Shown here in pieces: positions 14,800 to 43,735 of a stretch of 64,000 bases of DNA. A program made the translations under genes and the position numbers. The number at the start of each line of letters is the position of its first letter. The first letter of the stretch is position 1. Under the pieces are notes generated by a model, which saw only the letters and a program-made list of their open reading frames with translations, was not told the DNA's origin and did not search any database. This DNA comes from an uncultured Clostridia bacterium (lineage in GTDB: Bacteria; Bacillota; Clostridia; Christensenellales; UBA1242): positions 871-64,870 of the forward strand of contig CALVNT010000037.1 of assembly GCA_944349925.1 (NCBI GenBank), in the 5' to 3' direction.

Positions 14800-14842
14800 A
14801 AATTCTTATGTATTATAACTTATTTCTAAAAAAAATCAAAAT

Positions 14843-15063: not shown

Positions 15064-15102
15064 ATTATAATCTTATTCAAAAATCAAATATATTGTTAAA
15101 AT

Positions 15103-20149: not shown

Positions 20150-20187
20150 GTCGAAGTCCTCCCCATTTGACAAAAATATTTAAAATA

Positions 20188-20451
20188 TTATTTTTTAGTA
20201 AAAGGATCCTTATATTTTTCCTTTTCTTGTTTAATCTTTTTCTTTTTATCTATTTTATCACAAATAATATAAAAACACAAATACACGATTGAAGTAAAAA
20301 CAATAATAATAAATCCAGAAAGCACGGGACTAAGATTTGCATAATTTATAAGAGTAAAAACGATTAAAGCATCAATTAGAAAAATCGATACTAAAAACCA
20401 CATAAGCCTTTTATAATTTTTTCTTAAATCTCTGCTATCTTCTGGTCTCAT
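20188..20451 (-). CDS. small membrane protein (87 aa)
   Basis: Two hydrophobic helices and a Lys-rich tail. The last base of its start codon coincides with the last base of the typA stop codon (1-nt overlap at 20451). Confidence 0.5.
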   Translation of the reverse strand: MRPEDSRDLRKNYKRLMWFLVSIFLIDALIVFTLINYANLSPVLSGFIIIVFTSIVYLCFYIICDKIDKKKKIKQEKEKYKDPFTKK

Positions 20452-28192: not shown

Positions 28193-31172
28193 TATTCACC
28201 TCCTTAAAGTCTCTAAATGTTTTCAGTCTAATCCCGCTGTCTTTTCGATACATGCAAATTCCACCAAATACGCAGTGCTCACAAGCGTCGGCGTCGGGCA
28301 TCGGCTTTACAAAACCTTCCAAAATTTCTTTGCAAGCCCCTTTTGCCACTTCCCAAGCGTAATTTTGATAAAAACTAAGTGGCATTTTTGAAATAGCGTT
28401 GCCTGTATATGAGCCTGATTTTGAAAGAGCAATTGATAAAATTTCGCTTTTAGCCCCTTCGGTTAAATATTTATCAAAAAGTTTTAAATTTTCATCATCT
28501 TTTTCAACAAGACCTTTTAATAAACTTTTCCCGCCTTCACTATCTTCATAATCAAACTTGCAATCAAAATAAAAAACACTACCACAATGCTTGTTTAATT
28601 TTTCTTGCATAACTTTTGCATATAAAAATAATTGCAATTTGTTTCCATAATAAAGATCTTTCAACAATGATTTAGGCTTGCCTGTTTTATAATCAATAAT
28701 TCTAAAATATTCTTCTGCCACATCAATTCTATCTATTTTCCCAATAAAATTTAAGTTTTCGGAAATATTAGCGACCACCTTTTCCTCTAAACTATATGGT
28801 CTAAAACATGACGCTTGCATTTCTCTGCAAACATTTTCTAAGATTGTTTTTAATTGTTTCTTTAAAAATTTGACTAAGCCATCTTTTTCACATAACAAAT
28901 CTAATTTCTTTTGTAAACCTTGGCTTTCTATAATTTTATCAAAATTTAAATTGATAAAACTATCAACAATGCCATAATCAAAAGAAAACTCTTTGTTAAT
29001 ATATTGATTTACAAAAAGCTCAACTGCTTTATGGCAAATATTTCCAACATCTCTTTGGTCGAAGGCAAAAATTTCTTTTTCTTTTAAATTTAAGCCATAC
29101 CTTACAAAATGCTTAAACGGGCAAGAAAAATAAGTTTCAAGTTGAGTTACGGAGACATAATTATTTTTAAAAAACAATTTTGTTTGCAAATTTTTTTCAG
29201 TTTTTGTACTATTCAAAATCTCATACTTTTTCAAATTGGCAATACAACCGATTCGGTCTACAAGGTCACTTTCTTTAGTAAAAATTTTTGCAATTTGTTT
29301 TGTTTTTGTTTGAAATGTTTGATTTAATTGTTCAACAAAACTTGGCAAGGCATTTATTTTTCCTTCATCATTTAATAATTGAAAGCTTACAGCAACACTT
29401 TTCCAATTTTGAGTAAGCAAATTAAAAAGAGAAAAACGATTTCGCCTATTTATCATTCTGCTAGTAGGCTGGACAACTTTTTTGCAAATTGGGTTTTCTA
29501 TATCCCTATCACTTAAAATCGCGTTGTCACCAATAATTTTTGGAAGATTTTGCCCGCCTATAACAAACAAATTTTTTCCTTCTTCAAAAAAACTTTCCGT
29601 TGCATCTCCAACCATAATCCCATCAACTAAAGTTGGCACAGAAGAAATTTCTTTTGCGCTTAATATAAGTTCCAACTCTTTTGCTAGCTCCGCAAAATCT
29701 GCTTCATCATTCGGTGAAGAAGCATTTTGTATAAGTTGAACTGTTTTGCTGACAATATCAAAACTTTGTGCTTCAATATTTTCTTCTTTATATAGTTGTT
29801 TTTCGTGTAAGAAAATTAAATATTTTTGATAATTTGGATATATTTCGTTTAAAAAATTTTTAACCATATCAATAAGTTGATTAAAGGTTTTAATTTCTTG
29901 AAATTTATATAAGTATTTAGAAAAATTGTCTACAGAGCTAAAGAATTTGTCAAATTTCCATTTTCCATCAATCTGTTTTTGTATAATTTGTTCGATTATA
30001 TTTTTATTGTCCTGTGTTTGTAAAAGAGCGTTTGTGTAAAAATTTAAAAGACTTTCTTTTGAATAATTATGTATTTTTATATTTAACAAGGAAATAACCG
30101 CTCTAGCTAAAAGAGTTTGAAATGCATTTATGGAGTCGTCTAGAAAATAATTAAATTCGTATTTAGAAAAGATTTCATCAATAAGCTCTTTGTAGTCATC
30201 AAGTTGCCCAACTGCCACTGCAAAATCAGAAAACTTGTTCCCTTTTCGTATTTTTGACATTATAATTTTTGCAATATTTTCTACTTCTTGTCTTTTAGAA
30301 AAAGCGCTATAACTTTTAAAATAATCATCAACATTTACTGCGGGCGTTATTTGACAAGAATATAAATTTATAAGCACGCTCTCTTGTCCATTACTTTTTT
30401 TTAAGTTTCCTTCAAACACTTCTATTTGGTACTTATTTTCATTACATATTTTAATTATTTTTTCTTTTATATCATTTTCATATATATATTTGTTACCAAT
30501 AGTTTTTGGACTTGCAAACGAAATGTTTGTTTCTAGAGCACCATCGACAACAAATTTAATTATTTCATACATCTGTGAAGTAAAACTATCAAACTGAGCA
30601 AAATAAATTTTTGTTTTTGCCAAATAGTCTTTGGCAGAAGGATATTTTAAAAGTTGCTCAAAAAGTGATGCCGGATCAAGATTGTCACCGACTAACGAAA
30701 GATATTTTTCATATAATAGTGCAATATCGTGAAATTTATTTTTAGAAGTTGCAGATAAAAAACTCATTTTGTTAATATCTTCTGGAAAAATTCTGGAAGA
30801 TCCTAAAAGAGAGATTGCTTTAAAAATTTGATTACAAAAATTTATATTACTCTTTTTAAAATATAAAAATTCTTTTTGCTCCTCTTTTGCCGCCTTTTTC
30901 ACAAGCAACAGCCGTTCTCCAGCAGTGAGCATTTCTTGATTAACGCCGCTTTTTCTTAAGAGATCTATAGCGAAATTTGAAAAAGTAGTAACCCTTACAT
31001 TAAAAAGTATGCCTCCTGGTAAAAGCGACAACAATTTTTTTTCAGCCAAAAGCGAAAACCTGTCTGGCACAATAATCAAATGTTCTATTTCGTAATCACT
31101 ATTGTCGATGTGCGAAAACATAAAATTTGTTGCACAAGTAAGATTTTCTTCAACCCAAAGATTAACCTTCAT
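28176..31172 (-). CDS. addB: helicase/nuclease subunit B (AddB/RexB), Walker A absent
   Basis: Immediately upstream of and overlapping addA. Nuclease motif IIDYKTGK. Fe-S cysteines CPFKHF ... CEHCVFGGIC. The N-terminus reads VEENLTCAT where AddB normally has GRSGSGKT. Confidence 0.8.
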   Translation of the reverse strand: MKVNLWVEENLTCATNFMFSHIDNSDYEIEHLIIVPDRFSLLAEKKLLSLLPGGILFNVRVTTFSNFAIDLLRKSGVNQEMLTAGERLLLVKKAAKEEQKEFLYFKKSNINFCNQIFKAISLLGSSRIFPEDINKMSFLSATSKNKFHDIALLYEKYLSLVGDNLDPASLFEQLLKYPSAKDYLAKTKIYFAQFDSFTSQMYEIIKFVVDGALETNISFASPKTIGNKYIYENDIKEKIIKICNENKYQIEVFEGNLKKSNGQESVLINLYSCQITPAVNVDDYFKSYSAFSKRQEVENIAKIIMSKIRKGNKFSDFAVAVGQLDDYKELIDEIFSKYEFNYFLDDSINAFQTLLARAVISLLNIKIHNYSKESLLNFYTNALLQTQDNKNIIEQIIQKQIDGKWKFDKFFSSVDNFSKYLYKFQEIKTFNQLIDMVKNFLNEIYPNYQKYLIFLHEKQLYKEENIEAQSFDIVSKTVQLIQNASSPNDEADFAELAKELELILSAKEISSVPTLVDGIMVGDATESFFEEGKNLFVIGGQNLPKIIGDNAILSDRDIENPICKKVVQPTSRMINRRNRFSLFNLLTQNWKSVAVSFQLLNDEGKINALPSFVEQLNQTFQTKTKQIAKIFTKESDLVDRIGCIANLKKYEILNSTKTEKNLQTKLFFKNNYVSVTQLETYFSCPFKHFVRYGLNLKEKEIFAFDQRDVGNICHKAVELFVNQYINKEFSFDYGIVDSFINLNFDKIIESQGLQKKLDLLCEKDGLVKFLKKQLKTILENVCREMQASCFRPYSLEEKVVANISENLNFIGKIDRIDVAEEYFRIIDYKTGKPKSLLKDLYYGNKLQLFLYAKVMQEKLNKHCGSVFYFDCKFDYEDSEGGKSLLKGLVEKDDENLKLFDKYLTEGAKSEILSIALSKSGSYTGNAISKMPLSFYQNYAWEVAKGACKEILEGFVKPMPDADACEHCVFGGICMYRKDSGIRLKTFRDFKEVNNGTDK

Positions 31173-31226: not shown

Positions 31227-31973
31227 CTAAACATTTTCAGCCACTTTTGTTTTTTTTAGAGAAAGCAAATTTGCTTTTTCGCATTTTAATTTTATCATTT
31301 TTTGATTTAAACTTTGATTTTCTTTTCGCAGTTTTTCAAATTTTTCTTTTAAAGACAACAACTGACTATCTTTTTCGCCCAACATCACAATAGCTTTTCT
31401 AAGCTTTTCATTTAACCCTTCCTTTTCTTTGGCCTGCTTTTCCTCTAAATCACTTGCAATATTTCTTCTTATCAAACGGACAAGCCCCATAAAAAGTGAA
31501 GTTATATCATTTTCGCTAAGCCCTTGTTTGCGACTTGTAAATCTAATAATATTGTTTTGCTCAGCGCTTTGCCCTGATTGTGCTTTGGTGAAATTTCGAT
31601 ATTTGTTTTGATACCTAAGCATAACAGTTGGATCTCCATTGGAAAGCTCATAGCAGGCACTTCTAACACTTTTACCTTGGTTTTTCAACATATCTATTTT
31701 GTTAACAAGGTTTTGCTCCTCAATCTTTGAAAAACTTTCACTTTTATTTTTTTTATGCAACTCTAGATTTATTTTCAACTTTTCCAGTCTTTCCGAATCA
31801 TTTGATAATTTGTCAATTTCTTGATAATAATAATTTCTCACCGAATTTGGTTTTCTATTGTATTTTTTAGCATGCTCCTCAAATGCGTTTCTAAGAGCAA
31901 TTCCTTGTGCTTTTTTTTGCTCTACTGATAAAAAAAGTTCGCAAACCTCTTTATTAGCCCAAATGCCTTTCAT
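31227..31973 (-). CDS. hypothetical protein with C-terminal coiled coil (possible Myb/RsfA-like N-terminus)
   Basis: Start set at MKGIWANKE after AAGGAG. W..E...F....G..L..AFEEHAKKY pattern; low-confidence family guess. Confidence 0.5.
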   Translation of the reverse strand: MKGIWANKEVCELFLSVEQKKAQGIALRNAFEEHAKKYNRKPNSVRNYYYQEIDKLSNDSERLEKLKINLELHKKNKSESFSKIEEQNLVNKIDMLKNQGKSVRSACYELSNGDPTVMLRYQNKYRNFTKAQSGQSAEQNNIIRFTSRKQGLSENDITSLFMGLVRLIRRNIASDLEEKQAKEKEGLNEKLRKAIVMLGEKDSQLLSLKEKFEKLRKENQSLNQKMIKLKCEKANLLSLKKTKVAENV

Positions 31974-32065
31974 AATCTTTTCTCCTTTGTATAATTTATT
32001 GACAGAGATATTTGTTTTAAACATTTTTTTTGCATTAAATTCAAATATGCAGAGTAAAATATGAT

Positions 32066-32899
32066 ATGTTTAAGATATATTCACAATTTGATTGTTTGTT
32101 AAACTATAACGGCAAAGAAGTTTTTCTATCTGAAAACGAGAATCTTGATATAGAAACACCTTTAAAAATAAACGTTTATCCTCTTAACAATAAGCTTTCA
32201 TTTGTTTTAGACCTTGAAAATTTAACTGATAATCAATTTTACAAAACAAAAAAAGATAATGATACAACCTATATTGTTTTAGTTCAATCTTTTTTTGTCC
32301 ACAAAGAAGATATACATTCCTTCAAAAACTCTCCTTACCCTTTTGAAGTTTCGGTTTCTAAATCGGAAATTTCTTTTACCTCATCTTTTGCCAAAAAGAC
32401 AATGGCCCTACCGCCTTATACTAGTTACAAGGTTTCAAAAATTAAAAATCTTTGCGTTTGCATTTTTGATAATAACAATTATTCTTTTATTGTTGTATAT
32501 AATCCTAAAAATGACAAAATAAAAACTTTTAATGATGTTGACACTTTTTCTGACGATAAATTCATTATAAAAGAAGATTATTTTGATTTAGAATATAAAA
32601 TAGATAATGACGGTTTGAAAAATTCTTCGTTTACTTTAAATAAACCAATCCCTGAAGAGTTGATCGCATATCAATTTATGCTATCAGTCAAATTGCAAGG
32701 CTACGATTTTGCTTTTTCATTGCTTTCAAAAAATATGCAAGAAAAAATATCTACAAAGGATTTACGAGAATTTTTATCTGATATAAAGTTTTTTAAATTT
32801 ATAAAAAAAGACAAATGCTTGGCTCTTTCAGCTTCTGATACAATTATTTTATCTTTCAATATAAACAATAACAAAATAGAAGATATTTCTAGCGATTAA
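32066..32899 (+). CDS. hypothetical protein (277 aa)
   Basis: Long ORF with no recognisable motif and no SD. Confidence 0.5.
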   Translation: MFKIYSQFDCLLNYNGKEVFLSENENLDIETPLKINVYPLNNKLSFVLDLENLTDNQFYKTKKDNDTTYIVLVQSFFVHKEDIHSFKNSPYPFEVSVSKSEISFTSSFAKKTMALPPYTSYKVSKIKNLCVCIFDNNNYSFIVVYNPKNDKIKTFNDVDTFSDDKFIIKEDYFDLEYKIDNDGLKNSSFTLNKPIPEELIAYQFMLSVKLQGYDFAFSLLSKNMQEKISTKDLREFLSDIKFFKFIKKDKCLALSASDTIILSFNINNNKIEDISSD

Positions 32900-33416
32900 A
32901 ATCTTCTAAATATCGATCTTCACCATATTCTTTCATCCATTTTGATATTATGCAATCTTGCGGAAAGTCTCCTGCCGTCAAAAAATCAATAAGATTAACA
33001 AACTCTTTGGTTTCTGCAAATAAAACTTTCTGCAAGATTTTTACGGGATAAAATAGATCCATATCATTGTGCTTATAACTTAAAACTTTGCAGTCAAAAC
33101 TTTGGTCATTATCTATAAAAACATTGACGCCTTTATCATATAAAATTTTTTTGAATAAAAAAAGCTCTTGAGTGCTAGGTTCAATAAATTTACATCTTAA
33201 CAAAATGTTAAAAAAATCCATAAAAAACACAATAACATTTTCTAACGATAAAGATTCAAAAGCAAATCTTATTTTGGAAATATCGTTAGCAAATGAGAGC
33301 ATTTGTTTTGAGTTTTTAAAGCTAATGCTTTGCCAAATTTGTTTTTTAAGTTCACTTTGCAAAGTGACATATTTTTCTTCTAAAGAAATAGGTTTAATCC
33401 AATCTGAATGTTTCAT
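32889..33416 (-). CDS. hypothetical protein (175 aa)
   Basis: ORF with AAGGA SD; convergent with the previous gene and overlapping it by 11 nt. Confidence 0.5.
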   Translation of the reverse strand: MKHSDWIKPISLEEKYVTLQSELKKQIWQSISFKNSKQMLSFANDISKIRFAFESLSLENVIVFFMDFFNILLRCKFIEPSTQELFLFKKILYDKGVNVFIDNDQSFDCKVLSYKHNDMDLFYPVKILQKVLFAETKEFVNLIDFLTAGDFPQDCIISKWMKEYGEDRYLEDFNR

Positions 33417-33571: not shown

Positions 33572-33659
33572 GGAAGGATGGCTGAGCGGTCGAAAGCGGC
33601 GGTCTTGAAAACCGTTGATGTGAAAGCATCCTGGGGTTCGAATCCCTATCCTTCCGCCA
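33572..33659 (+). tRNA. tRNA-Ser(UGA)
   Basis: GGAAGGATGGCTGAGCGGTCGAAAGCGGCGGTCTTGAAAACCGTTGATGTGAAAGCATCCTGGGGTTCGAATCCCTATCCTTCCGCCA. Long variable arm, anticodon loop CTTGAAA, encoded CCA. Confidence 0.9.
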
Positions 33660-33706
33660 TAGACTTGTCCATCCGTACCAATTCTGGTATGGGTGGAATT
33701 TTTTAT
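33652..33706 (+). repeat. direct repeat copy 1 (attL-like): last 8 nt of tRNA-Ser plus terminator hairpin
   Basis: TTCCGCCATAGACTTGTCCATCCGTACCAATTCTGGTATGGGTGGAATTTTTTAT. A 12-bp stem (33669-33680 / 33685-33696) is followed by a T-run. Confidence 0.8.
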
Positions 33707-33771: not shown

Positions 33772-34557
33772 ATGTTATATGATTATTCTAAAAATATTAT
33801 AATATGTGAAGATAGAAAGCAAGTTATTAATAGTAAAATATATTTTCAAATACAATGCATTCATGGTTATAAAGATATATATGCTAAGCGTTTTATAAAT
33901 AAAGGTGAATACGGAGGTTTTGTTCATTCAAGTATTTCGAAAATTACTAATTGGATTGAAGAAAATGACATTTTGGGTATGCCGATAACTGAAATTTGTT
34001 ATATCCAGAAAGTATCTTCTTATTGTAAATATAGAAAAAGTAATTTATTAAATCATGTAAATTTTGTTAAAGAATATGTAAATTTTTGTATGTATAATAA
34101 GAAAGGAACTTCTGAACATAGCAAAATAAATGCACATCTTTGGAATTCGCAAAGAATATTAGGGATGATAGAAGAATTAAAACAAAATGAAGAAATTATT
34201 ATTAATCAACATACTGAAATATCTGATGCAAAAAAAATAGTACTTTGGCTTCTTTTAGGAGCTATTTCTGAAGCAATTCTAAAATTACATATCATATTAA
34301 CGAGAGAGAAGTATAAAGATTTTGAAAAATCAGATTATGAAAAACTAAAAGTTAAAGATATAATAAATAAAATGTATGAACAAAAAGACATTTCAAAAGA
34401 AGATAGCATCTTTTTACATAAATTAAATGGCAATAGAAACATGATACATATATTAAATAACGAAAATATTTATAATTACGAAGAATATTGTATTGCAATA
34501 GATAATCTATTTCAAATATTAACAGATTTATATAATATACAAAAAAGTATGATTTAA
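33772..34557 (+). CDS. hypothetical protein (261 aa), first island gene
   Basis: GGAGAG SD; no family recognised. Confidence 0.5.
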   Translation: MLYDYSKNIIICEDRKQVINSKIYFQIQCIHGYKDIYAKRFINKGEYGGFVHSSISKITNWIEENDILGMPITEICYIQKVSSYCKYRKSNLLNHVNFVKEYVNFCMYNKKGTSEHSKINAHLWNSQRILGMIEELKQNEEIIINQHTEISDAKKIVLWLLLGAISEAILKLHIILTREKYKDFEKSDYEKLKVKDIINKMYEQKDISKEDSIFLHKLNGNRNMIHILNNENIYNYEEYCIAIDNLFQILTDLYNIQKSMI

Positions 34558-34573
34558 TAATACTTTGATCAAA

Positions 34574-34599
34574 AAAGAGAACAATTCTATTGTTCTTTT
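34574..34599. terminator. bidirectional terminator (end of the 10-gene operon and of the 33772 gene)
   Basis: AGAACAAT-TCT-ATTGTTCT hairpin with flanking A and T runs. Confidence 0.65.
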
Positions 34600-34609: not shown

Positions 34610-35182
34610 TCATAAATCTAATTTGTATTTAATTGTATTAAAAGCAATCTCAAAAACCTCATTTTGCGATAAAAAAGATGTGTCTATTATTAAGTGCTTA
34701 AGTCTATATTTTTTAATATATTGAATTAATTTTTTTTCGTCTGCATTTAAAATAATTTCATTTTGCAAATCAGAATCATGCGGATTTCGTTTTAAAAGCC
34801 TAGTTTTTCTTATTTCTGGAGTTGCTGTTAATAAAATTGTAAAATCAGGCTTTCCAAAATTTTTAATTGAATTTTTAAATATAAATTCACTAACTTTATT
34901 GCCATTCCAATAATAATTTAATAGAGCATGCCTGTCTAAAATTACATTTTTATTTTTATAATATTCAAGAGCATAATTATCGCCTATTGACAAAAACATC
35001 GCAGTTAATAAACTGTTATTATAATTAATTACTTTTTCAGAAATTTTTCTATAATCATTTTCAGAAATGTCATATAACTTGCACTCAGGGTGTTTAACAT
35101 ATTCATATTTCAATTTTTTTGATAATTGTAGGGCAAGCGACGTTTTGCCAACTCCATCATGTCCTTCAATTGCTATAATCAT
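34610..35182 (-). CDS. thymidylate-kinase-family P-loop nucleotide kinase
   Basis: MIIAIEGHDGVGKTSLA (P-loop), LDRHALLNYYW (DR[YH] motif region) and PDFTILLTATPEIRKTRLLKR (lid/PD..L region). Confidence 0.7.
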   Translation of the reverse strand: MIIAIEGHDGVGKTSLALQLSKKLKYEYVKHPECKLYDISENDYRKISEKVINYNNSLLTAMFLSIGDNYALEYYKNKNVILDRHALLNYYWNGNKVSEFIFKNSIKNFGKPDFTILLTATPEIRKTRLLKRNPHDSDLQNEIILNADEKKLIQYIKKYRLKHLIIDTSFLSQNEVFEIAFNTIKYKLDL

Positions 35183-35778
35183 TGTCCTTCTCTCCTTAAT
35201 AAAAATTTAGTTAATTTTTTATACAAATTGTCCTCATATAACAAAGTTTTGCAACCAGCTGTTTGTGGGTTTTTTATATCCATTTCCCAATTGTCACCAA
35301 TATGTAATATTTCTTGTGGGTCCATTTTAAACATAGTAGCTAATTTTTTAAATGCTATTGCCGGTTTACCTGCAATATGGAAATCTTCCAATGTTGATAT
35401 ACAAGTTTTAAATAATGCTTGATACTCTCCAAGTTCAAAATCTATAAATGTATGAGTAGTAGTAGAAAATATTACGCAAGGAATTTTACTTTTACTTATA
35501 AAGTCTAATATTTTTAAATCAAGTTTGGGTTTATCTATTTTTTCAAGCTCATATTTAGTATTAAAATTTAAAAGATTTTCCCAATATTTTTCATCATAAT
35601 ATTTAAAATCATACTTTCCTACTTCGTTAAAAAAAATTTTTAGATTGTCCTTTGCTTCTTGTATGCCAATATTATAATGCTTTGCGTATTTTTCAGGTAA
35701 AATTTTTAACCAGAATGTGTCAGAAAAATTGGAATTTGAAATAGTTCCTTGCAAATCAAAGCTTATTAATTTTATCAT
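35179..35778 (-). CDS. HAD-superfamily hydrolase (phosphatase-like)
   Basis: Motif I FDLQGT (Gln at Asp+2) and motif IV HIGDNWEMDI. Confidence 0.65.
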   Translation of the reverse strand: MIKLISFDLQGTISNSNFSDTFWLKILPEKYAKHYNIGIQEAKDNLKIFFNEVGKYDFKYYDEKYWENLLNFNTKYELEKIDKPKLDLKILDFISKSKIPCVIFSTTTHTFIDFELGEYQALFKTCISTLEDFHIAGKPAIAFKKLATMFKMDPQEILHIGDNWEMDIKNPQTAGCKTLLYEDNLYKKLTKFLLRREGQ

Positions 35779-36299
35779 CTTTTCTCCTTAACTTTTACAA
35801 GTGAGAAAATATCATATTCTTTTAAATCTTTTCTTCCATTTAAATATTCTAGCTCTGTTATATACACTAAAGCATTTACTTTTGCTTTTTGTTTTTTAAC
35901 TAGGTTAATTGCCGCCAAGCTAGCACCACTTCCAGCCATAATATCATAAATTATAGCACAATTATCATTCTCAATTAATGCGTCTACTTTTAATTGATAT
36001 TCAGCTTTACCGTATTCTTTGATAAATTTTTCGCTATAATAATCACCAGGAATTAAATTTGGCTTTCTTATAAGAACTAAAGGCAAGTTCAATAAATGGG
36101 CGATGATTGAACCAATAGTAAATCCTTTAGATTCTATAGCCACAATTTTTGTTATTTTTTTGTCTTTTAAAAACTCTAAAATTTTATTTATTGCCATATT
36201 TCTTGCACTTACATTTTTAAGTAGATAAGTAAAATCCCAATATTTAACACCCTCTTTAGGGAAATTGTCGTAACCTTTTACAAATTTTTCAAACTCCAT
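35775..36299 (-). CDS. adenine-phosphoribosyltransferase-like protein with altered PRPP loop
   Basis: Collinear with Apt: YDNFPKEGVKYWDFTYLL, ITKIVAIESKGFTIG, VLIRKPNLIP, EYGKAEYQLKVDAL. The PRPP loop IIYDIMAGSGAS replaces VVDDLLATGGT. Confidence 0.7.
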   Translation of the reverse strand: MEFEKFVKGYDNFPKEGVKYWDFTYLLKNVSARNMAINKILEFLKDKKITKIVAIESKGFTIGSIIAHLLNLPLVLIRKPNLIPGDYYSEKFIKEYGKAEYQLKVDALIENDNCAIIYDIMAGSGASLAAINLVKKQKAKVNALVYITELEYLNGRKDLKEYDIFSLVKVKEKR

Positions 36300-36304
36300 A
36301 AATA

Positions 36305-36919
36305 TTATTCCTCCATAAGTATTGCTCTTGATGGACCAGCATCAATGCCAGTTACTTTAATTGGTAAGCAAATAAGTTTATATTCTTTTTCAACCGTGTC
36401 TTTTAGCCTCAGATTATCTAAACAAATAATGTTTTTTTCCATAAAAATTCTATGTATTTTACATTCTCCATTTCTTTCAAAACTTTGATAATCATAACCT
36501 ACAAGAATTACACCCAAATCCCTTAGATATTCTGCTGCATCTTCTGTCAATGCAACATGTTCAGGATTGTATTTTTCCATTTTATCATATGAATTTTTAG
36601 TTTTTAAAAGTATTCTTTTTAAGTAAATATCTTTTTTCTGTAAGTCTTTTTTAGTTATCATATCATCTGCTTCTGTTAAATCTAACACTTGACAATCACC
36701 AATCAATACTTCAAATGGTACTTCATCACTTTTCCATTTATCATTAAACAAATAATACGGAGCATCTATGTGCGTTCCGGCGTGAGCACCAAAATCAAGC
36801 CACGTAAAGTTAACTGGTGCATCCGGTATTCGAGCTAATCGAATTAGCTTTGGTGGCTCATCATCTTTCCAGACAATAGTGCGTTCATTAAGCTCCATTG
36901 ATATATCAATAATATTCAT
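36305..36919 (-). CDS. cyclase-family protein (kynurenine-formamidase-like metal hydrolase)
   Basis: FGAHAGTHIDAPYY signature of the putative cyclase / KynB family. Confidence 0.7.
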   Translation of the reverse strand: MNIIDISMELNERTIVWKDDEPPKLIRLARIPDAPVNFTWLDFGAHAGTHIDAPYYLFNDKWKSDEVPFEVLIGDCQVLDLTEADDMITKKDLQKKDIYLKRILLKTKNSYDKMEKYNPEHVALTEDAAEYLRDLGVILVGYDYQSFERNGECKIHRIFMEKNIICLDNLRLKDTVEKEYKLICLPIKVTGIDAGPSRAILMEE

Positions 36920-38159
36920 AGATCTCTCCTAACTTTTTATTTATTCTTTTTAGCCAATTGATTCTATATGTACTAAATTTTTTTAGTATTTGATTTAAAA
37001 TGAATAATCTATATTTTTTATATTTTCTTAATATACTTTCTGAATATTTTATATTGCATTTTAATTTTTCAAAAGCATTCCAATAGTCAAGGTGGTTTTT
37101 TACTGGCATAGGTGACCATGCTGGCGCATAAATTTCAAAAACTTGATCAAGAAAATCATAATATTTGGAAATGCCATATAACTTAAACTCTAAATCTTTT
37201 ATAATATATCTGGCAATATCTTCAATTCTAATATAGTTTCTTACTTGTTCTTCTACGCAGTTAGATTTTAATTTTGATAATAAATCATTTTTTAAAATAT
37301 AATCTTTTATTGTTTTATAAAACGCCTTACAATTTTTGCCTTCATTTAACACATTTAACAAATCATCTAAATAAATTTTTTCAAATGTATCGGCAGAATA
37401 AAAATAATAACCTATTAAATCAATTCTGTTTTCAAATGGATAAGCCCCATTGGTATAGCACTCTAACTCTGTCTCTTTGCTATAAAGCGTGAATGCAATT
37501 TTATCAACTAAATTTGGTTTTTCTAAAAACATACAGAATGCGGAAAGTTTAAAATCTGGCTTAATATTAAATAATTTAGCAAATAAATTAAAGTTCCTAA
37601 TGATAGTTCCTGCGTTTATATATTCGTCAAAAACCAAAAATTTAGAATTAAAAAATTTAGATAATTTTGTACCATATAAAACTTTATTAAATTGTTTCAA
37701 TATATTATAATTATAATCAAAATTATCATTTATGCTATCTATAATTGTAAATGGTTTTTTCTGTATTAAATTATCCAAATTTGTTTTGTCGCATAAATTT
37801 TTTAAATAATTGCAACGGGGAAGTAAATGATTATTAATTAGTACGTTTTGATTTAATTCAGTTTTGCTAAGATACAATTTAAACCAATCAAACAAATTAA
37901 AGTTCAAATCTCTTGGAATTTTGAGCTGTATAAAGTTTATATCTGAAACTTTATATTCAGGTAAGAGTGTGATAATTTTAAATAAAGGTGCTGTTCCACT
38001 TTCAATAAAAATTACATTTTTGTAATTTGACTTAATAATTTCATCAAAAACCATTTGAGCCATTTTTATTGACTGTTTGTCGTCTTTGTATTTAAATCCA
38101 CGACCAAAATCCTCATTAATAAATTTTGATAAATTATCAATTTTTCCATATGGATTCAT
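36906..38159 (-). CDS. orphan 417-aa protein with a possible PRTase-like PRPP motif
   Basis: FLVFDEYINAGTIIRNF resembles the hhhhD[DE]xxxxGxT PRPP loop; otherwise unrecognised. Confidence 0.35.
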   Translation of the reverse strand: MNPYGKIDNLSKFINEDFGRGFKYKDDKQSIKMAQMVFDEIIKSNYKNVIFIESGTAPLFKIITLLPEYKVSDINFIQLKIPRDLNFNLFDWFKLYLSKTELNQNVLINNHLLPRCNYLKNLCDKTNLDNLIQKKPFTIIDSINDNFDYNYNILKQFNKVLYGTKLSKFFNSKFLVFDEYINAGTIIRNFNLFAKLFNIKPDFKLSAFCMFLEKPNLVDKIAFTLYSKETELECYTNGAYPFENRIDLIGYYFYSADTFEKIYLDDLLNVLNEGKNCKAFYKTIKDYILKNDLLSKLKSNCVEEQVRNYIRIEDIARYIIKDLEFKLYGISKYYDFLDQVFEIYAPAWSPMPVKNHLDYWNAFEKLKCNIKYSESILRKYKKYRLFILNQILKKFSTYRINWLKRINKKLGEIYEYY

Positions 38160-38161
38160 AT

Positions 38162-38818
38162 TTACTCCTTTGCAATTTCAATGAAATTTTTAATTTTTTC
38201 AAAATCTTTTCTATCTTTTTTTAGATAAGTATCGCTGAAGGTGCTAACACCAGTAGATACATCAACACCATATGGCTCGGTTGTTTTAATTGCACCTTGT
38301 AAATTTTGTAGATTTAAACCGCCAGCAATAAAAGAAGGTTTGTTTGTTGATTTCAATAAAATTGATGTTCGTATCCAATCATTTTCTTTGCCCGTTCCAC
38401 CAGTATAATCAAGATTTCTAGAATCAAATAAAAAGTAATCACAATAAGGGTAATAAAGCTTCATTCTGCTTTCTGCATCATTATAATTAGAAACAATTGT
38501 TTTGATAATTTCCCCTAAGAAATTTTCTCTAACAATTTTTATCTGCTTTTCATCAATATCTTCTGATATTTGAATACCTGTACACTTTATATATTTAGCT
38601 AAATCCAAAATGTCCTCAGCATTTAATAAGTGCGTAACTAAAAAGCTTTTAACATTTTTAGGAAATTTTTTTATAGTTTCACGAACCCATTGAGCGTATG
38701 GTTCGACCTCAACAGGCAAAACTTTTCCACCCATAACAAATCCTATACAATCTGCTCCGAGTTTTATCGCATTTAAAGCATCAATTTCGTTACTTATTCC
38801 ACATATTTTAACTTTCAT
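38162..38818 (-). CDS. phosphoribosylanthranilate-isomerase (TrpF/PRAI)-like TIM-barrel protein
   Basis: MKVKICGIS..AIKLGADCIGFV, TGGTGKENDW, FIAGGLNLQNL and YGVDVSTGVS are collinear with TrpF. No other trp genes are nearby. Confidence 0.7.
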   Translation of the reverse strand: MKVKICGISNEIDALNAIKLGADCIGFVMGGKVLPVEVEPYAQWVRETIKKFPKNVKSFLVTHLLNAEDILDLAKYIKCTGIQISEDIDEKQIKIVRENFLGEIIKTIVSNYNDAESRMKLYYPYCDYFLFDSRNLDYTGGTGKENDWIRTSILLKSTNKPSFIAGGLNLQNLQGAIKTTEPYGVDVSTGVSTFSDTYLKKDRKDFEKIKNFIEIAKE

Positions 38819-39656
38819 TTTCTTTTACCTCATAATTATAAACTTCTTTTAAATATTCACCCCACAAACCATCATCATTTCCGCTTTTAGTTTTTAACTT
38901 AGATAAATTGTCAATTGAACCGCGATCGATAACACCATTTTCAGTTACTTCACATAAATTACCATTACCATCAACAAATACATCATAATCGTTTTCAATT
39001 TCAAAATCTTCTTCAACAATAATGCTGTTTTTATAATTTTCTTTGACTTTTTTCATTAAAATTTCATAGGCATCTTTATCTACTTCAAATCTTTTACGAT
39101 AATCTTTTCCATATCCACTGGCGAAAAATTTTCCTAATTTCCAACTTAAAATTTTACTATTCATTAGAGTAAACATATTAGGGATATCATTAATATTCTC
39201 TTTGCCAACCATAGTATTTATTTTAATTTTTACTTTTGGATATTTGCTTGATATATAGTCAACTAGTTTTAAAACATGTTCATGATGATTTTCAAGCGCA
39301 CAGGGACGCATTTTATTATGTATCATAGGGTCAAATGAATCTAATGGCAGATTAATTGCATCTATATAATTTAAAACATCTTCTTTTTGTGGAAGTAGTA
39401 TGCCATTGGTTGAAATTATTGTCATCAATCCCTTGTCTTTGCAATACTTAATTATTTCTATAATATCATCCCTTACAAGTGGATCTCCGCCTGTAAGATT
39501 TATAGCTTTTAAGCCATTGTCAATTAAAACATCTATAACATGTTTTGCCTTTTGTGTACTTATTTGTTCACGATTAATTCTCCAATCAGAAAAGCAAAAT
39601 TCGCAATTCATATTACATCTGCTTGATATTTCAAAACAAGTGTAAACTATTTTCAT
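38808..39656 (-). CDS. radical SAM enzyme, viperin/MoaA-like (no auxiliary cluster)
   Basis: CNMNCEFC (CxxxCxxC), INLTGGDPL, IISTNG, LPLDSFD, IKINTMV, SWKLGKFF. 282 aa with no C-terminal Cys cluster. Confidence 0.65.
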   Translation of the reverse strand: MKIVYTCFEISSRCNMNCEFCFSDWRINREQISTQKAKHVIDVLIDNGLKAINLTGGDPLVRDDIIEIIKYCKDKGLMTIISTNGILLPQKEDVLNYIDAINLPLDSFDPMIHNKMRPCALENHHEHVLKLVDYISSKYPKVKIKINTMVGKENINDIPNMFTLMNSKILSWKLGKFFASGYGKDYRKRFEVDKDAYEILMKKVKENYKNSIIVEEDFEIENDYDVFVDGNGNLCEVTENGVIDRGSIDNLSKLKTKSGNDDGLWGEYLKEVYNYEVKENES

Positions 39657-40753
39657 AAATCCTCCTTAAAAATATTTTCTATTTCATTTTTTACTCTTTC
39701 ATAATCTTCTTTAAAAGTTGTTAAATCCCCATTAATATCTAAATGATTAAACTCACTTCCTCTTTGGGTTGCTTCAGTCGAACCTGCCATATTTACAGCA
39801 CCTATAGATTTTACCCTTGTAATGTTATAGCCGAACTTTTCCATAGCTTTAATTTTTAATGGATTATTTGTCAACATAACAACATTTTTATTTGCTTGTA
39901 TAAAGTCCATAATAATAGGAGTTATATTATATCCAGCACCATCGTTTTCTTTTCTTGGATCTCCTTCAATGCCGATAGTAGTAAAGCCTCCATACATTGT
40001 TGTTTTATAGGTTTGTTCTGCACTATATTCACCTCTGTGACGCATTGAAGCTCGCTCACTTAAATCAAAAACAAATTCATCTTTTGTATAGCCGCTACCC
40101 ATTCCATTTTGAGAATCAATATGCATCAAAACAAATCCAATTTTACTGATTTTACTATAAATATGTTTGCCTTCGCTATATTTAAATTGTTCTTGCACCC
40201 AATGTTCAAAAGCATCTCCATTATCAAATTTAGGTGGCGTGATTTCATTAAAAGTCGCTGATAGTTCTCTGATATTTTTCCATTGATAATAACAATTGCA
40301 TCTTTGAGAACCAAACAAGAATGATGGCGTACAAGCAGATTCTGTTCTTAAAACAATTTTATTATCGTAAATATTGCCTACAATTCCAACGTTTGCATAT
40401 TCCATGCCAATCATGGGATTATAAATACACAAACCAATGTGTCTTACTAGATGTGGTGTTTCATTTTTCTCTGATAAAGAAAATAAAGTTGCACCTTTAT
40501 TGGCAATAATTAAGGACTTTGTTTTTTTATGAATTGCAATATCATATAAATTCATTAAATCACCAGTGGCTTTGTTTTGATCTAGCCCTGTTATAAAATT
40601 TAAAATTATCTTATTAAACATATTTCTATCTTTGATATTCCAAACAGGTGAATTGTCATTTGGAACTTTATCTAATACTTCGATATAAATTTGTCTTATT
40701 CTTTTTATCCTAGATAAATAGTTATTTATTCCGTTTTCAATTTTATCTTTCAT
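39653..40753 (-). CDS. GTP cyclohydrolase II-family protein, divergent, with ~130-aa N-terminal extension
   Basis: RTESACTPSFLFGSQRCNCYYQ (three Zn-ligand Cys as in RibA C..RCDC) and VVMLTNNPLKIKAMEKFGYNITRV (RibA LLTNNPRK..L...G). Confidence 0.65.
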   Translation of the reverse strand: MKDKIENGINNYLSRIKRIRQIYIEVLDKVPNDNSPVWNIKDRNMFNKIILNFITGLDQNKATGDLMNLYDIAIHKKTKSLIIANKGATLFSLSEKNETPHLVRHIGLCIYNPMIGMEYANVGIVGNIYDNKIVLRTESACTPSFLFGSQRCNCYYQWKNIRELSATFNEITPPKFDNGDAFEHWVQEQFKYSEGKHIYSKISKIGFVLMHIDSQNGMGSGYTKDEFVFDLSERASMRHRGEYSAEQTYKTTMYGGFTTIGIEGDPRKENDGAGYNITPIIMDFIQANKNVVMLTNNPLKIKAMEKFGYNITRVKSIGAVNMAGSTEATQRGSEFNHLDINGDLTTFKEDYERVKNEIENIFKEDL

Positions 40754-41300
40754 TTTTTTCTCCTAAATTATTTTCAAAATTTTTAAAGATTTGGTTTAAT
40801 CTTTCATATTCATCTACATGCGGGAATATATTGCTACTTCTATCGTGTTTGAAAATTTCTGCCATTTCAAAATATTGGGCACATTCTACTTCTTCTTGTT
40901 GATATCTTAAATCTTCAAGATTAACATTTTTTTTCAATACAAATACATCTACAAATTCTCTGCTTACTATGTCTTTCCAAGCAAAATCTTCTTTAATTGT
41001 GAATAGAAATTTAAAGTCTTTGGGCTTCAATTTTAGCCCTAATTCTTCTTCTCCTTCTCTAATGGCACTAATAAGTGATTTTTCTCCCGCAGCAATGTGA
41101 CCAGCAAAGGAACAGTCCCAGTAGTTTGGGAAAAATTTCTTTTTAGCACATCGTTTTTGCATTAATATTTGATTTTTATCATTTACAATCCAAACATGTA
41201 CGCTTTTGTGCCAAAGCCCTTTTTTGTGAGCTATAGCTTTATCAATTACTCCTTTACAATTACCATTTTCATCATACCAATCAATTAATTCATGCTCCAT
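40743..41300 (-). CDS. NUDIX hydrolase
   Basis: Intact Nudix box GHIAAGEKSLISAIREGEEELGL. Start at MEHELIDW after AAGGAG. Confidence 0.8.
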   Translation of the reverse strand: MEHELIDWYDENGNCKGVIDKAIAHKKGLWHKSVHVWIVNDKNQILMQKRCAKKKFFPNYWDCSFAGHIAAGEKSLISAIREGEEELGLKLKPKDFKFLFTIKEDFAWKDIVSREFVDVFVLKKNVNLEDLRYQQEEVECAQYFEMAEIFKHDRSSNIFPHVDEYERLNQIFKNFENNLGEKNER

Positions 41301-41899
41301 TCTTTTTCTCCTTTTTCTTGTGATATTTCTGGTAGTGGCAGAAAGCCACAACATATAACTGGGGTGTTTTCTGCATTAAAATTTAAATTATCATCATTTA
41401 TCTTGCCTTCCCTTAAAACAGACAGACATCCAGTAATTTTAAAACCTGCTTGATTTGAGAAGTTTTTCATAAATTTAAATGTTGATCCAGTTGAATATAC
41501 GTCATCTACAAATAAAACATTTTTATTTTTCAACTTTTCATATTCTGTTTGCGAAACATAGTACTCGCTTTTGCCAGATGTAATACTTTCGCCATCAATA
41601 GATATTGGATTTAACATATAGCACTTTTTACTTTTTCTTAGACATACATAGTCACAATTAAGATATCTCGCAACTTCTTGTGCGATTGGCAATCCTTTCA
41701 ATTCGGTGGTTAAAATTATGTCGTATTTAATACCTTTCGTTATAGTTTGATAAGATAGAGATTTGCCCGCTTTTTTTAATAATTCCATGTCGCCCACCAA
41801 ATTAAAACCAGCAATATATATGCCACTTGGGGTTTTCAAAATAGGCAATTGTCTTTTTAGTCCTAAAATATTTAGCTCATAAAAATTATTTTTTTTCAT
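41285..41899 (-). CDS. type I phosphoribosyltransferase
   Basis: PRPP loop VLFVDDVYSTGSTF. Start at MKKNNFYEL after GGAGGG. First gene of the operon. Confidence 0.75.
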   Translation of the reverse strand: MKKNNFYELNILGLKRQLPILKTPSGIYIAGFNLVGDMELLKKAGKSLSYQTITKGIKYDIILTTELKGLPIAQEVARYLNCDYVCLRKSKKCYMLNPISIDGESITSGKSEYYVSQTEYEKLKNKNVLFVDDVYSTGSTFKFMKNFSNQAGFKITGCLSVLREGKINDDNLNFNAENTPVICCGFLPLPEISQEKGEKEWSMN

Positions 41900-41949: not shown

Positions 41950-41998
41950 TTTATACGGTGTCAATATGACACTATCAATATATCATAGCATTAGTGTC
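41950..41998. promoter_or_regulatory. operon promoter (minus strand TTGATA-17-TATAAA) with palindromic operator in the spacer
   Basis: -10 at 41950-41955 and -35 at 41973-41978. Perfect palindrome GTGTCA-ATA-TGACAC at 41958-41972. A further inverted pair is GACACTA (41969-41975) / TAGTGTC (41992-41998). Confidence 0.55.
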
Positions 41999-42120
41999 TT
42001 GTCAACAATTTTATTAAAAATTTTTTAATATTTTTTGTTAAACCAAAAAGTGTTAAATCTACACTAAAAGACTTTACTTTATTTTTTAAATGTTATATAA
42101 TCCTGAAAAGGATATAATTT

Positions 42121-42762
42121 ATGGAATTTAGTAACAAATATGAAAAACAAATGATCTCAGTTGATATTTGCATGTTTTCAATAATAGATAATAAATTAAA
42201 TGTTTTACTTGCGAAAAGAGCTGAAGATCCATATAAAAATATGTGGAGTTTAATTGGCGGTGGAGTTTATAATGACGAAACGTGTGAAAACGCTGTAAAA
42301 AGAGAATTAGCCGAAAAATTAGATATTCATGATATTTCACCTATTCTTTCGAGTGTTTTTAGTGAACCTAAAAGAGATATTAGATTTAGAAATATATCAA
42401 TATCATATTTTTGTTTAGTAAATTCTTCAATAGCACATAAAATTAACACAAAAAAAGTTTTAGAAGTAAAATGGAGTGAAGTATATAAAATTACAAAATT
42501 GGCATTTGATCATAACGATATACTAAATAAAGCAATTAACCAATTAAAGGAAAAAGCTTTTGATATTGATTTCATGAAACCTTACCTACCTAAATATTTT
42601 ACTTTATCCACACTTCAATCAATATTTGAAAGTATTCTGCAAACGAATTTAGATAAAAGAAATTTTAGAAGAAAGTTAAATTCTTTAAATTGTTTAATTG
42701 ATACAGGTGAAAAAAACGAATTAGACAAACATAAAAAATCTGTTATTTATCAATTAAAATAA
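42121..42762 (+). CDS. NrtR-like Nudix-related transcriptional regulator
   Basis: N-terminal Nudix fold with degenerate box (GGGVYNDETCENAVKRELAEKLDI). C-terminal winged-helix signature FTLSTLQSIFESILQTNLDKRNFRRKL...SVIYQL. Confidence 0.7.
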   Translation: MEFSNKYEKQMISVDICMFSIIDNKLNVLLAKRAEDPYKNMWSLIGGGVYNDETCENAVKRELAEKLDIHDISPILSSVFSEPKRDIRFRNISISYFCLVNSSIAHKINTKKVLEVKWSEVYKITKLAFDHNDILNKAINQLKEKAFDIDFMKPYLPKYFTLSTLQSIFESILQTNLDKRNFRRKLNSLNCLIDTGEKNELDKHKKSVIYQLK

Positions 42763-43182: not shown

Positions 43183-43532
43183 ACCAATGACAATATTTAT
43201 TTATACTTTTAATTTATCAGACATACCCCTTACTTATTTAAAAGCATAATAAGAAGCATTTTATCCGAACTTCTAAATGGCTTAATTTTACATTCACAAA
43301 CAGATAATTTTCAAGCATAGATAATTAGATACATTTACGAACAATATGCAAAAAATGTTTATGTTAAAAACATAACAGAAAATATAACAAGTAAAGGTAT
43401 TTACTGTCGTGGGAAACTTTTTTAAAAAATGCAGTTTACAGAATACTAAAAAATGAAAAATATTCAGATGTGTATCATTACAATGATGAAGTGTTTAAAA
43501 ATATTTATCCACAAATTATTCCTAACGATTAA
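43183..43532 (+). pseudogene. decayed large-serine-recombinase fragment (recombinase domain only)
   Basis: Frame A reads ..HTPYLFKS..LILHSQTDNFQA*IIRYIYEQYAKNVYVKNITENITSKGIYCRGKLF. After a frameshift in a T6A6 run it reads KNAVYRILKNEKYSDVYHYNDEVFKNIYPQIIPND*. This matches the PYGY ... IF..Y ... G..W....V..IL.N..Y.G pattern. Two in-frame stops, one frameshift, no Zn-ribbon or coiled-coil part. Confidence 0.55.
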
Positions 43533-43682
43533 ATCATAAAAAATTTAGTCGTTTTTGTTGTTAAATTTAAAATGAAATTTTACAAATTATTCAAAAACTA
43601 TTGCAATTTTTTATATTCTTAATATATACTATGTATATATTAAAAGTTAAAAGGAAGGAGTGTTTTTATGGATACGCACGCT

Positions 43683-43735
43683 TTCCGCCATAGACTTGTC
43701 CACCCGTACCATTATGGTATGGGTGGATTTTTATA
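43683..43735 (+). repeat. direct repeat copy 2 (attR-like), also a functional-looking terminator hairpin
   Basis: TTCCGCCATAGACTTGTCCACCCGTACCATTATGGTATGGGTGGATTTTTAT. Differs from copy 1 by one stem transition, the loop (ATTC vs TTA) and one A. Confidence 0.8.

Follow-up and report, generated by a model that had tools for sequence, protein, structure and literature searches.

RibA and the chlamydial TrpF together convert GTP to 7,8-dihydroneopterin monophosphate (H2NMP; PMC4161248), while archaea and S. meliloti take GTP to the formamidopyrimidine ribotide AFRPP and then to DARPP in two steps, the second catalysed by a separate formamide hydrolase (PMC13028884, PMC9478397). The tubercidin and toyocamycin pathways require GCH-I, the CPH4 synthase QueD and a QueE-type radical SAM enzyme (PMC6112128), the 8-azaguanine pathway requires a GCH-I-like enzyme and NOS (PMC7109123), and the URC pathway of yeast couples a GCH-II-like enzyme with a phosphoribosyltransferase (PRTase) to yield ribosylurea (URC1 and URC6; PMC7530994); see also Zhang et al. 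(ACS Catal 2021), quoted there through PMC12507026. Here we examined a ten-gene operon (g1 to g10) within a 64,000-nucleotide window of the genome of an uncultured Clostridia bacterium (GenBank assembly GCA_944349925.1, contig CALVNT010000037.1, positions 871 to 64,870). We conclude that it represents a conserved cluster, probably a GTP-derived nucleotide/heterocycle pathway operon, with one new protein family (g6) and a sister clade of the viperins (g4). No characterised pathway was found to match the gene set one-to-one, in agreement with the first-pass annotation of this DNA, which knew of none combining these enzymes, and no description of the cluster was found in the open full-text literature that was searched.

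The operon comprises ten minus-strand open reading frames (ORFs) running from 41899 to 34610. Start and stop codons overlap by 4-16 nt at seven junctions (41285-41300, 40743-40753, 39653-39656, 38808-38818, 36906-36919, 35775-35778 and 35179-35182), the other two being separated by gaps of 2 nt (38159/38162) and 5 nt (36299/36305); every coordinate of the single, coupled unit described at first pass was reproduced in the ORF list of the window. For g1 and g2 we accepted the shorter starts (41899 and 41300, respectively), because a GGAGGG ribosome-binding site lies ahead of the g1 start, independent gene calls on near-identical DNA (L039, see below) use the same two positions, and the homologue alignments of both proteins begin at the corresponding residues. 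Significant profile hits were obtained for nine of the ten proteins, the exception being g6, for which more than 100 homologues and a structural model with a predicted local distance difference test score (pLDDT) of 92 were recovered instead; we therefore regard all ten genes as real. The family assignments made from the bare sequence were each recovered by these searches, that of g3 weakly and that of g6 without a hit.

Related loci were gathered from genomes and metagenomes via homologues of g3 and g6, and their gene content was scored by tblastn. Across approximately 35 other loci, the genes encoding the GCH-II-like, PRAI-like, 417-aa PRTase-fold, arylformamidase-like, Apt-like and HAD-like proteins were found in the fixed order g3-g5-g6-g7-g8-g9 wherever the contig was long enough, which settles positively whether these families co-occur outside this genome, a check proposed at first pass. 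Overlapping starts and stops are also retained in distant versions of the cluster (as in the coordinates of L033). A kinase gene is usually present, drawn from one of three unrelated families: kinA, which is g10-like and located at the 3' end of the cluster; kinB, which is Tmk-like and located between the radical SAM and PRAI genes; and kinC, an unrelated P-loop protein encoded after the HAD gene. Such displacement among three non-orthologous kinases suggests that the kinase step is needed. The viperin-like radical SAM, NUDIX, aminotransferase and extra PRTase genes constitute variable modules. For example, a g4-type radical SAM gene is absent from the Patescibacteria-type clusters L003-L007 and L022, as well as from L025, L026, L029 and L030, while a class-III aminotransferase gene directly follows the PRAI gene in L025, L028 and L035; CYTH-like and ITPase-like genes occur in scattered clusters only. 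On gene content, the core of the cluster is thus six genes plus a kinase, and not the viperin-like radical SAM enzyme.

Hosts of the cluster include metagenome-assembled genomes (MAGs) labelled Patescibacteria, 'archaeon', Woesearchaeota and Clostridiales/Eubacteriales, together with rumen and gut metagenomes. Core proteins share 50-80% identity across phyla (60-79% for g7), with g6 the fastest-evolving among them at 26-53%. Clusters of the candidate phyla radiation (CPR) type, L003-L007, are flanked by housekeeping genes; the closest relative of the window's cluster, L001 from a mouse-gut 'Eubacteriales' MAG, shares no flank synteny with it. No folate, riboflavin or queuosine gene and no transporter was found in any cluster or annotated flank. 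Taken from these comparisons, the cluster is rare and horizontally spread among gut Firmicutes, CPR bacteria and DPANN archaea. A phage origin was rejected, as 2.9 million viral contigs held no relative of g6 and no meaningful fold match was found in BFVD. The fullest cluster, in an archaeal MAG (L035), is situated between a region encoding a DNA methylase, another radical SAM protein, a DUF5906 primase-like protein and a phage integrase (952-7741) and, on the other side, a type I restriction HsdR gene (18896-21110). Also identified was a soil/groundwater-type locus, L025, where the cluster comes after genes (850-1503) for a CYTH-like protein, recognised by an EIETKF motif but unmatched in NCBIfam, and for an additional Apt of canonical type; no adjacent g3 is visible on the contig.

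The first core protein, g3, exceeds the cutoff of the Pfam GTP_cyclohydro2 model PF00925 (26.2 bits, cutoff 23.3) over only 65 residues of its C-terminal part, and reaches 27 bits against the 206 required by TIGR00505. A profile of the g3 family found no match among PDB sequences, and fold comparison alone succeeded: an AlphaFold2 (AF2) model made with database homologues of g3 (pLDDT 93.6) was matched by Foldseek solely to GCH-II (4rl4, E 4.5e-6) and to UTP cyclohydrolase (7ej3/7eev). In an hhalign alignment of the family with E. coli RibA (52% probability), the Zn ligands C54/C65/C67 correspond to C141/C152/C154 of g3, Arg128 to R267, and TNNPKK to TNNPLK at 294-300, all of these g3 residues being invariant in 38 sequences. 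In the same alignment RibA Tyr105, the catalytic residue needed for formate release, corresponds to Phe229, which falls inside the family consensus EFxFDL.

Homologues of g3 with 61-62% identity were also found on four rumen Methanobrevibacter contigs (L002, L036-L038), where a genuine DARPP reductase gene of the archaeal type (TIGR01508, 218 bits, cutoff 186) begins approximately 90 nt downstream of them. They likewise possess Phe at the Tyr105 position, and no other cluster gene is present there. This homologue is a candidate GTP cyclohydrolase and may catalyse the opening step of riboflavin/F420 synthesis in these methanogens; the pair occupies 9983-11853 of L002. Among database proteins, NUDIX-g3 fusions (P0202, P0204, P0211, P0213), a fusion of a PF18306 SLOG domain with g3 (P0237) and a fusion of an FkbH_N/HAD domain with g6 (P0342) were observed. 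From their domain composition, fusions with g3 or g6 may hint at functional partners: a pyrophosphatase, a domain resembling nucleotide N-glycosidases and one of HAD type.

The isomerase relative, g5, aligns end to end with Thermotoga maritima TrpF (1lbm) and retains the catalytic Cys (KICG), the Asp and the phosphate-binding GGxG/AGGL segments. Its best NCBIfam score is 113.7 bits (cutoff 215), and there are no trp genes near it. The metal hydrolase relative, g7, scores 124.9 bits against TIGR03035 (cutoff 223), has as its nearest PDB entries the uncharacterised metal-dependent hydrolases 8hmo and 1r61, followed by kynurenine formamidases, and is present wherever g3 occurs in clusters.

No Pfam or NCBIfam match was obtained for g6 in profile searches, and a profile of its family found nothing among PDB sequences. 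Fold comparison of its AF2 model (pLDDT 92.3) gave as top Foldseek matches 6-oxopurine PRTases in every case, over approximately 210 columns; no structural match was found for the helical C-terminal half (approximately 200 aa). The family possesses an invariant PRPP (phosphoribosyl pyrophosphate)-type loop, FLxFDEYINxGT, and probably has Asn where HGPRT has its catalytic Asp. Among 1.84 billion proteins, approximately 110 representatives were found at E<1e-3, with no bridge to ordinary PRTases. The second PRTase of the core, g8, lies above the cutoff of NF002636 (140 bits, cutoff 125) but below that of TIGR01090 (142 bits, cutoff 186); the true Apt of L025 scores 198 bits. A housekeeping Apt role for g8 was ruled out by its altered PRPP loop and by that separate true Apt. 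The HAD motifs II-IV are present in g9.

The three cysteines of the g4 radical SAM motif (C14, C18 and C21) are invariant in its family. Viperins are the closest solved relatives, and g4 scores approximately 110 bits (1e-31 to 4e-32) against the prokaryotic viperin (pVip) models of PADLOC, but its 105.2 bits against NF038283 (viperin_w_prok) lie under the curated cutoff of 180. The family profile matches viperin at 79 bits and MoaA at 62 bits; the QueE model gives just 45 bits, in the N-terminal radical SAM core. The g4 clade comprises 93 proteins, at least 45% identical, all sharing contigs with g3 and g6; no relative outside the cluster was seen among the loci, and the cluster occurs without g4 in many lineages. 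Of the triphosphate-binding residues of viperin, which we take to be K120, K220, R245 and K247 (mouse numbering), the Lys equivalents in g4 (LKAIN, KIKINT, WK) are invariant, and the Arg245 position is Ser. The extended N-x-H motif that precedes the Cys triad in viperins is missing, g4 reading CFEISSRCNMNCEFCF where viperin reads NYHFTRQCNYKCGFCF. By analogy with viperin, the likeliest substrate of g4 would be a nucleoside in its triphosphate form. These results do not support a place for the viperin-like enzyme at the heart of the system, since it is lacking from a substantial minority of clusters and falls well short of the viperin cutoff. The PADLOC check suggested at first pass was partly productive: it returned hits for g4 and for the kinase g10 (VakA 41 bits, PDC-M51B 51 bits) and nothing relevant for the other eight operon proteins or the flanking orphan ORFs, so that nothing in it places the cluster among known defence systems.

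The remaining genes vary between lineages. In place of g10, other lineages carry kinB or kinC. The NUDIX gene has a variable position; L032/L033 and some eight database proteins carry it as a fusion with g3. By gene content, g1 is restricted to the window element and its near-identical copies L039 and L041.

Of the promoter-like sequences in the region, the one with the best score (11/12; 42005-41977) lies directly upstream of the operon and reads TTGACA-17-TATATT, extended by a TG. Promoter-like matches overall numbered 74 against 68 +/- 9 in shuffled sequence, i.e. without excess, which makes a single promoter plausible and internal ones possible. Of the one promoter and one hairpin terminator initially described, the terminator was upheld by direct reading (34596-34571; it is AT-rich and was passed over by a consensus terminator scan), whereas the promoter was located at a site of a kind no commoner than in shuffles, such that transcription from one promoter is plausible from the sequence. 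A divergent gene not interpreted at first pass encodes an NrtR-type regulator, in which a NUDIX domain with a degenerate, non-catalytic Nudix box is joined to a winged helix. Locus comparison revealed NrtR-type genes adjoining most clusters. The GACACTA-N17-TAGTGTC arrangement at the promoter is identical in the window and L001, and lineage-specific palindromes occupy the same place in 12 other loci (ACTTwTTAA-N7-TTAATAAGT in the gut group, ACTTTACGT-N5-ACGTAAAGT in the archaeal group). From this recurrence of sequence and position, the palindrome over the promoter is a candidate NrtR-type operator.

Comparison with two nearly identical loci located the operon on a mobile island. Two direct repeats of 56 nt (families D3/D5, 97% and 88% identical) are situated 10,030 nt apart and enclose an orphan 261-aa ORF, the operon, the NrtR gene and approximately 900 nt of non-coding DNA, and nothing else. 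The orphan ORF has no Pfam, PADLOC or NCBIfam match. In L039, a 177-kb contig from another sample, the segment from 43690 to 33652 of the window recurs at 99.6% identity between unrelated flanks; the homology stops exactly at the left repeat, and past the island lie a further copy of the repeat and, undamaged, a gene for a large serine recombinase of 500 aa (14673-16175), of which the window island has only a remnant of its own. The sister strain L040 matches the window at 100% identity over 11.5 kb, AddB flank included, but at 302-3019 it encodes a tyrosine integrase and a homologue of adenylosuccinate synthetase (PF00709, 442 aa) where the window has NrtR, g1, g2 and the 5' part of g3; this disruption indicates that the operon is dispensable. 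Together, the att-like repeats, the recurrence of the same 10-kb segment in other flanks and the recombinase remnant bear out the island recognised at first pass, and strongly confirm that the operon is cargo of an approximately 10-kb tRNA-targeted integrative element. Features of the operon and island are collected in Table 1. Outside the island, an AddA/AddB helicase-nuclease pair is encoded at 24908-31172 of the window and marks the host as a Bacillota-type bacterium; three ORFs between AddB and tRNA-Ser (265, 277 and 175 aa; 31227-33416) have no family hits and are conserved in the L040 flank; and a probable surface protein of 1483 aa, built with Listeria-Bacteroides (Flg_new) repeats, is encoded at 45935-50386. 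A Vut_1 gene (YhhQ-type queuosine-precursor transporter family) at 1-894 of L039, approximately 3.5 kb outside the island, is probably coincidental.

Table 1. Positions of the operon genes, candidate signals and island features in the window, ordered along the forward strand.
Feature	Position	Strand	Remarks
tRNA-Ser(tga), integration target	33572..33659	+	ARAGORN; last ~10 nt within left repeat
Left att-like direct repeat	33650..33705	+	tRNA 3' end and terminator hairpin; repeat families D3/D5
Orphan 261-aa ORF, convergent with operon	33772..34557	+	Travels with island in L039 and L040
Terminator hairpin and T-run after g10	34571..34596	-	AGAACAAT-AGA-ATTGTTCT then CTTTTTT; sequence read directly
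g10, Tmk/Cmk-like nucleoside monophosphate kinase (kinA type)	34610..35182	-	Pfam Thymidylate_kin 48.7 bits
g9, HAD-fold protein (core)	35179..35778	-	Pfam Hydrolase/HAD_2
g8, Apt-derived PRTase (core)	35775..36299	-	YD where PRPP loop has DD
g7, Cyclase-family arylformamidase-like metal hydrolase (core)	36305..36919	-	Pfam Cyclase 70 bits
g6, novel 417-aa protein (core)	36906..38159	-	N-terminal type-I PRTase fold and helical C-terminal domain
g5, PRAI (TrpF)-fold Amadori isomerase (core)	38162..38818	-	Pfam PRAI 66 bits
g4, viperin-like radical SAM enzyme (accessory module)	38808..39656	-	CxxxCxxC; Pfam Radical_SAM, viperin models best
g3, RibA/UrcA-superfamily NTP cyclohydrolase, GCH-II-like (core)	39653..40753	-	Pfam GTP_cyclohydro2, fold match
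g2, NUDIX hydrolase (accessory module)	40743..41300	-	Pfam NUDIX 56.6 bits; intact Nudix box GX5EX7REUXEEXGU
g1, extra type-I PRTase (PRK07322 subfamily)	41285..41899	-	NF005592 142.8 bits, cutoff 143
Promoter and candidate operator	41959..42007	-	-35 42005-42000, -10 41982-41977; inverted repeat GACACTA-N17-TAGTGTC around promoter
NrtR-family regulator	42121..42762	+	Divergent from operon; Pfam NrtR_WHD 69 bits and NUDIX 54 bits
Large serine recombinase remnant	43312..43528	.	218 nt, 92% identical to part of intact L039 gene; no ORF left
Right att-like direct repeat	43681..43735	+	L039 homology starts at 43690

We tentatively propose, with a confidence that stops somewhat short of even, that the cluster encodes a mobile, rare pathway turning a guanine nucleotide into an intracellular modified nucleotide or nucleoside, with a dedicated repressor of the NrtR type in control. 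The most plausible entry to it is through GTP/PRPP chemistry. Initially, g3 would open GTP to AFRPP, which g7 would deformylate to 2,5-diamino-6-ribosylamino-pyrimidinone 5'-phosphate; g5 could subsequently perform an Amadori rearrangement of the ribosylamine, for which there is biochemical precedent, giving a keto intermediate that either closes to a dihydroneopterin-phosphate-like pterin or is intercepted. Some clusters encode an aminotransferase right behind PRAI, as would suit a keto intermediate formed at this step. More speculatively, g6 and g8 might attach phosphoribosyl from PRPP or a PRPP-like donor to the new heterocycle or, alternatively, supply the base upstream as in URC, with the kinase and the HAD-fold g9 adjusting the phosphorylation state at the end. 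In this element g4, the NUDIX protein g2, the Tmk-like g10 and the extra PRTase g1 would form an optional tailoring layer, the g4 reaction being likened to the 3'-deoxy-3',4'-didehydro (ddh) chemistry of viperin. Given the mobility and dispensability of the operon, its dedicated repressor and the lack of an exporter, we favour an intracellular accessory role, such as an antiviral or antimetabolite nucleotide, over a secreted antibiotic. A bolder version, which we consider unlikely, is that the pathway dismantles GTP and, by means of the new PRTase-fold family, rebuilds it as a non-canonical nucleotide, which in the extended form of the cluster the viperin sister clade dehydrates to a chain terminator; this would be a new class of NrtR-switched antiviral or antimetabolite nucleotide.

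Several observations weigh against the proposed pathway. The full-length fold match of g3 is to UTP cyclohydrolase (358-362 columns), so that a non-guanine NTP is possible as substrate; the hhalign match to RibA is only 52% probable; and the link from the Tyr change to formamide retention draws on a GCH-II paralogue of Streptomyces (S. coelicolor), in which replacement of this Tyr reportedly gives the formamide-retaining product. In g7 the HxGTHxDxPxH motif ends in Tyr instead of His (HAGTHIDAPYY). In g8 the PRPP loop reads YD, the first Asp being gone, and this is invariant in six lineages, where the true Apt and g1 read DD; in g9, motif I is D-[LM]-Q rather than DxD, Asp8 and Gln10 being invariant in 8 lineages. 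Each of the labels Apt, HAD phosphatase and formamidase is thus at odds with the catalytic motif of its family, and to judge from these motifs the activities of g7, g8 and g9 may differ from their family names. In addition, g6 and g8 could act before g3 rather than after it. Finally, the conservation of the core (60-79% for g7), its reduced-genome CPR and DPANN hosts and the housekeeping flanks of L003-L007 are likewise compatible with a role in cofactor supply or salvage.

Such a role can be formulated as a supply module for pterins or cofactors, a somewhat unlikely alternative in which salvaged guanine is converted to dihydroneopterin, or to another pterin or flavin precursor, by a route independent of FolE and FolQ. 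In this scheme g6 would act as a guanine PRTase, the kinase would lead to GTP, g3 and g7 would form the diaminopyrimidine ribotide, g5 would form dihydroneopterin phosphate and g9 would dephosphorylate it; organisms with reduced genomes would thereby make a cofactor, and the radical SAM, NUDIX and other modules would be lineage-specific additions. The demonstrated RibA and TrpF route to H2NMP (PMC4161248) provides its chemistry, and its setting is suggested by the occurrence of the cluster in Patescibacteria, DPANN-type archaea and small gut Firmicutes, by the very high conservation of the core enzymes, by the flanks of L003-L007 and by the riboflavin reductase adjoining g3 in Methanobrevibacter. 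The 6-oxopurine PRTase fold of g6 and the usual recruitment of a kinase would likewise suit a salvage entry, but g6 also carries a 200-aa extra domain and, presumably, Asn in place of the HGPRT catalytic Asp, and g8 has no place in the scheme. Further, FolB/FolK/FolP, PTPS, RibH/RibE and QueCDE are absent from every cluster and annotated flank, variable tailoring by radical SAM, aminotransferase, CYTH and ITPase proteins would be unusual for a cofactor pathway, and the operon of the window resides on a mobile island and is disrupted in the sister strain.

A catabolic or salvage route resembling URC, in which a PRTase (g8 or g6) activates a free base and the kinase raises it to the NTP, after which the ring is opened by g3 and the product trimmed by g7, isomerised at the ribosylamine by g5 and dephosphorylated by g9 with release of nitrogen and/or pentose, appears to us quite improbable. 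It would use all seven core activities in a single linear order, CPR and DPANN organisms are nucleotide scavengers, and the UTP cyclohydrolase match of g3 extends over the full length. On the other hand, the sequence of g3 resembles RibA more than UrcA, and its Methanobrevibacter homologue adjoins a DARPP reductase. An arylformamidase relative suits a formamidopyrimidine better than a ureide, no role is left for the radical SAM, aminotransferase and NUDIX modules, and downstream genes for handling urea or amines are absent. Compared directly with URC (URC1 UTP cyclohydrolase and URC6 UPRT; PMC7530994), the cluster shares a RibA-superfamily cyclohydrolase with an N-terminal extension, a PRTase and steps of phosphorylation and dephosphorylation, but PRAI, Cyclase-family, g6 and radical SAM proteins have no counterpart there.

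Very improbable is an ordinary pVip defence system, in which g4 and its partner kinase g10 convert a normal NTP into a chain-terminating ddh-nucleotide, the remaining genes being helpers or unrelated neighbours: despite the PADLOC matches of both proteins, the kinship of g4 with viperins and the island setting, g4 scores below the NF038283 cutoff with MoaA close behind viperin, forms a discrete clade never seen without the cluster, is dispensed with by the cluster in many lineages, and is locked between g3 and g5 by start/stop overlaps. The likeness to pVip and its partner kinase (PDLC02903-5, NF038283) lies in a small radical SAM protein that keeps the triphosphate lysines, co-varies with a Tmk-like kinase and is carried on a mobile island; unlike pVip, g4 lacks N-x-H and belongs to a metabolic cluster conserved also in its absence.

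Returning to the proposed GTP-derived pathway, if its product is a new nucleotide or pterin-like molecule, it would constitute an additional GTP-derived pathway, none like it having been found in the full-text literature searched. It would also define a function for the new PRTase-fold family g6, and would establish a viperin-like radical SAM enzyme as a tailoring step within a multi-enzyme pathway rather than a stand-alone defence gene. Should the chain-terminator version hold, the cluster would illustrate, in extant organisms, the kind of metabolic context out of which viperins might have been recruited. The spread over CPR, DPANN and gut Firmicutes at 50-80% identity, together with the mobile island, suggests an accessory trait traded among hard-to-culture organisms, and nucleotide analogues of this kind would be leads for antivirals and antimetabolites.

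Further known systems resemble parts of the locus, which lacks defining features of every system compared here. Like the NrtR regulons of NAD metabolism, it has a regulator with the defining non-catalytic NUDIX domain and NrtR winged helix, and palindromes that overlap the promoter; unlike them, the operon has no NAD biosynthesis or salvage gene among its ten proteins in Pfam and NCBIfam searches. Early histidine biosynthesis proceeds by N-ribosylation with PRPP (HisG), loss of pyrophosphate (HisE), ring opening by a Zn cyclohydrolase (HisI), an Amadori step (HisA), an aminotransferase (HisC) and the HisB phosphatase; the likeness is in the order of reaction types only, no cluster protein being orthologous to a His enzyme. 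With the deazapurine antibiotics the cluster shares a logic of a GTP-derived heterocycle, a radical SAM enzyme, an Apt-like PRTase using PRPP, and Nudix/HAD dephosphorylation. It departs from them in having GCH-II-like, PRAI, formamidase-like and g6 proteins and an optional, viperin-like radical SAM enzyme, and in being devoid of an exporter, GMP reductase and UbiD. Identity with the tubercidin/toyocamycin pathways was rejected, as none of the ten proteins matches the GCH-I, QueD or QueE families; the 8-azaguanine pathway was likewise rejected, its GCH-I-like enzyme and NOS having no match in the gene set.

The riboflavin and folate entries come closest. As in the archaeal and S. meliloti entry to riboflavin, ring opening and deformylation are split, as predicted here for g3 (Tyr105 to Phe) and g7. 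The enzymes differ, in that ArfA, the GTP cyclohydrolase III of that entry, is not of the RibA fold and ArfB/BrbF belong to the creatininase family rather than the Cyclase family of g7. Identity with the riboflavin pathway as such was rejected, the cluster being without reductase, deaminase, lumazine synthase (RibH) and riboflavin synthase (RibE), as was identity with the folate pathway, FolB/K/P being absent. In the chlamydial FolE/FolQ bypass, the genes are housekeeping, unlinked and feed FolB/K/P, whereas the present cluster consists of dedicated, divergent paralogues in an operon with a formamidase-like protein, two PRTase-fold proteins, a HAD-fold protein and a kinase, and with no folate genes near. 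Both share a GCH-II-type opening of GTP followed by a TrpF-type Amadori step on a ribosylamino-pyrimidine, and the bypass is the one known case in which the two families at the front of this cluster have been paired by experiment.

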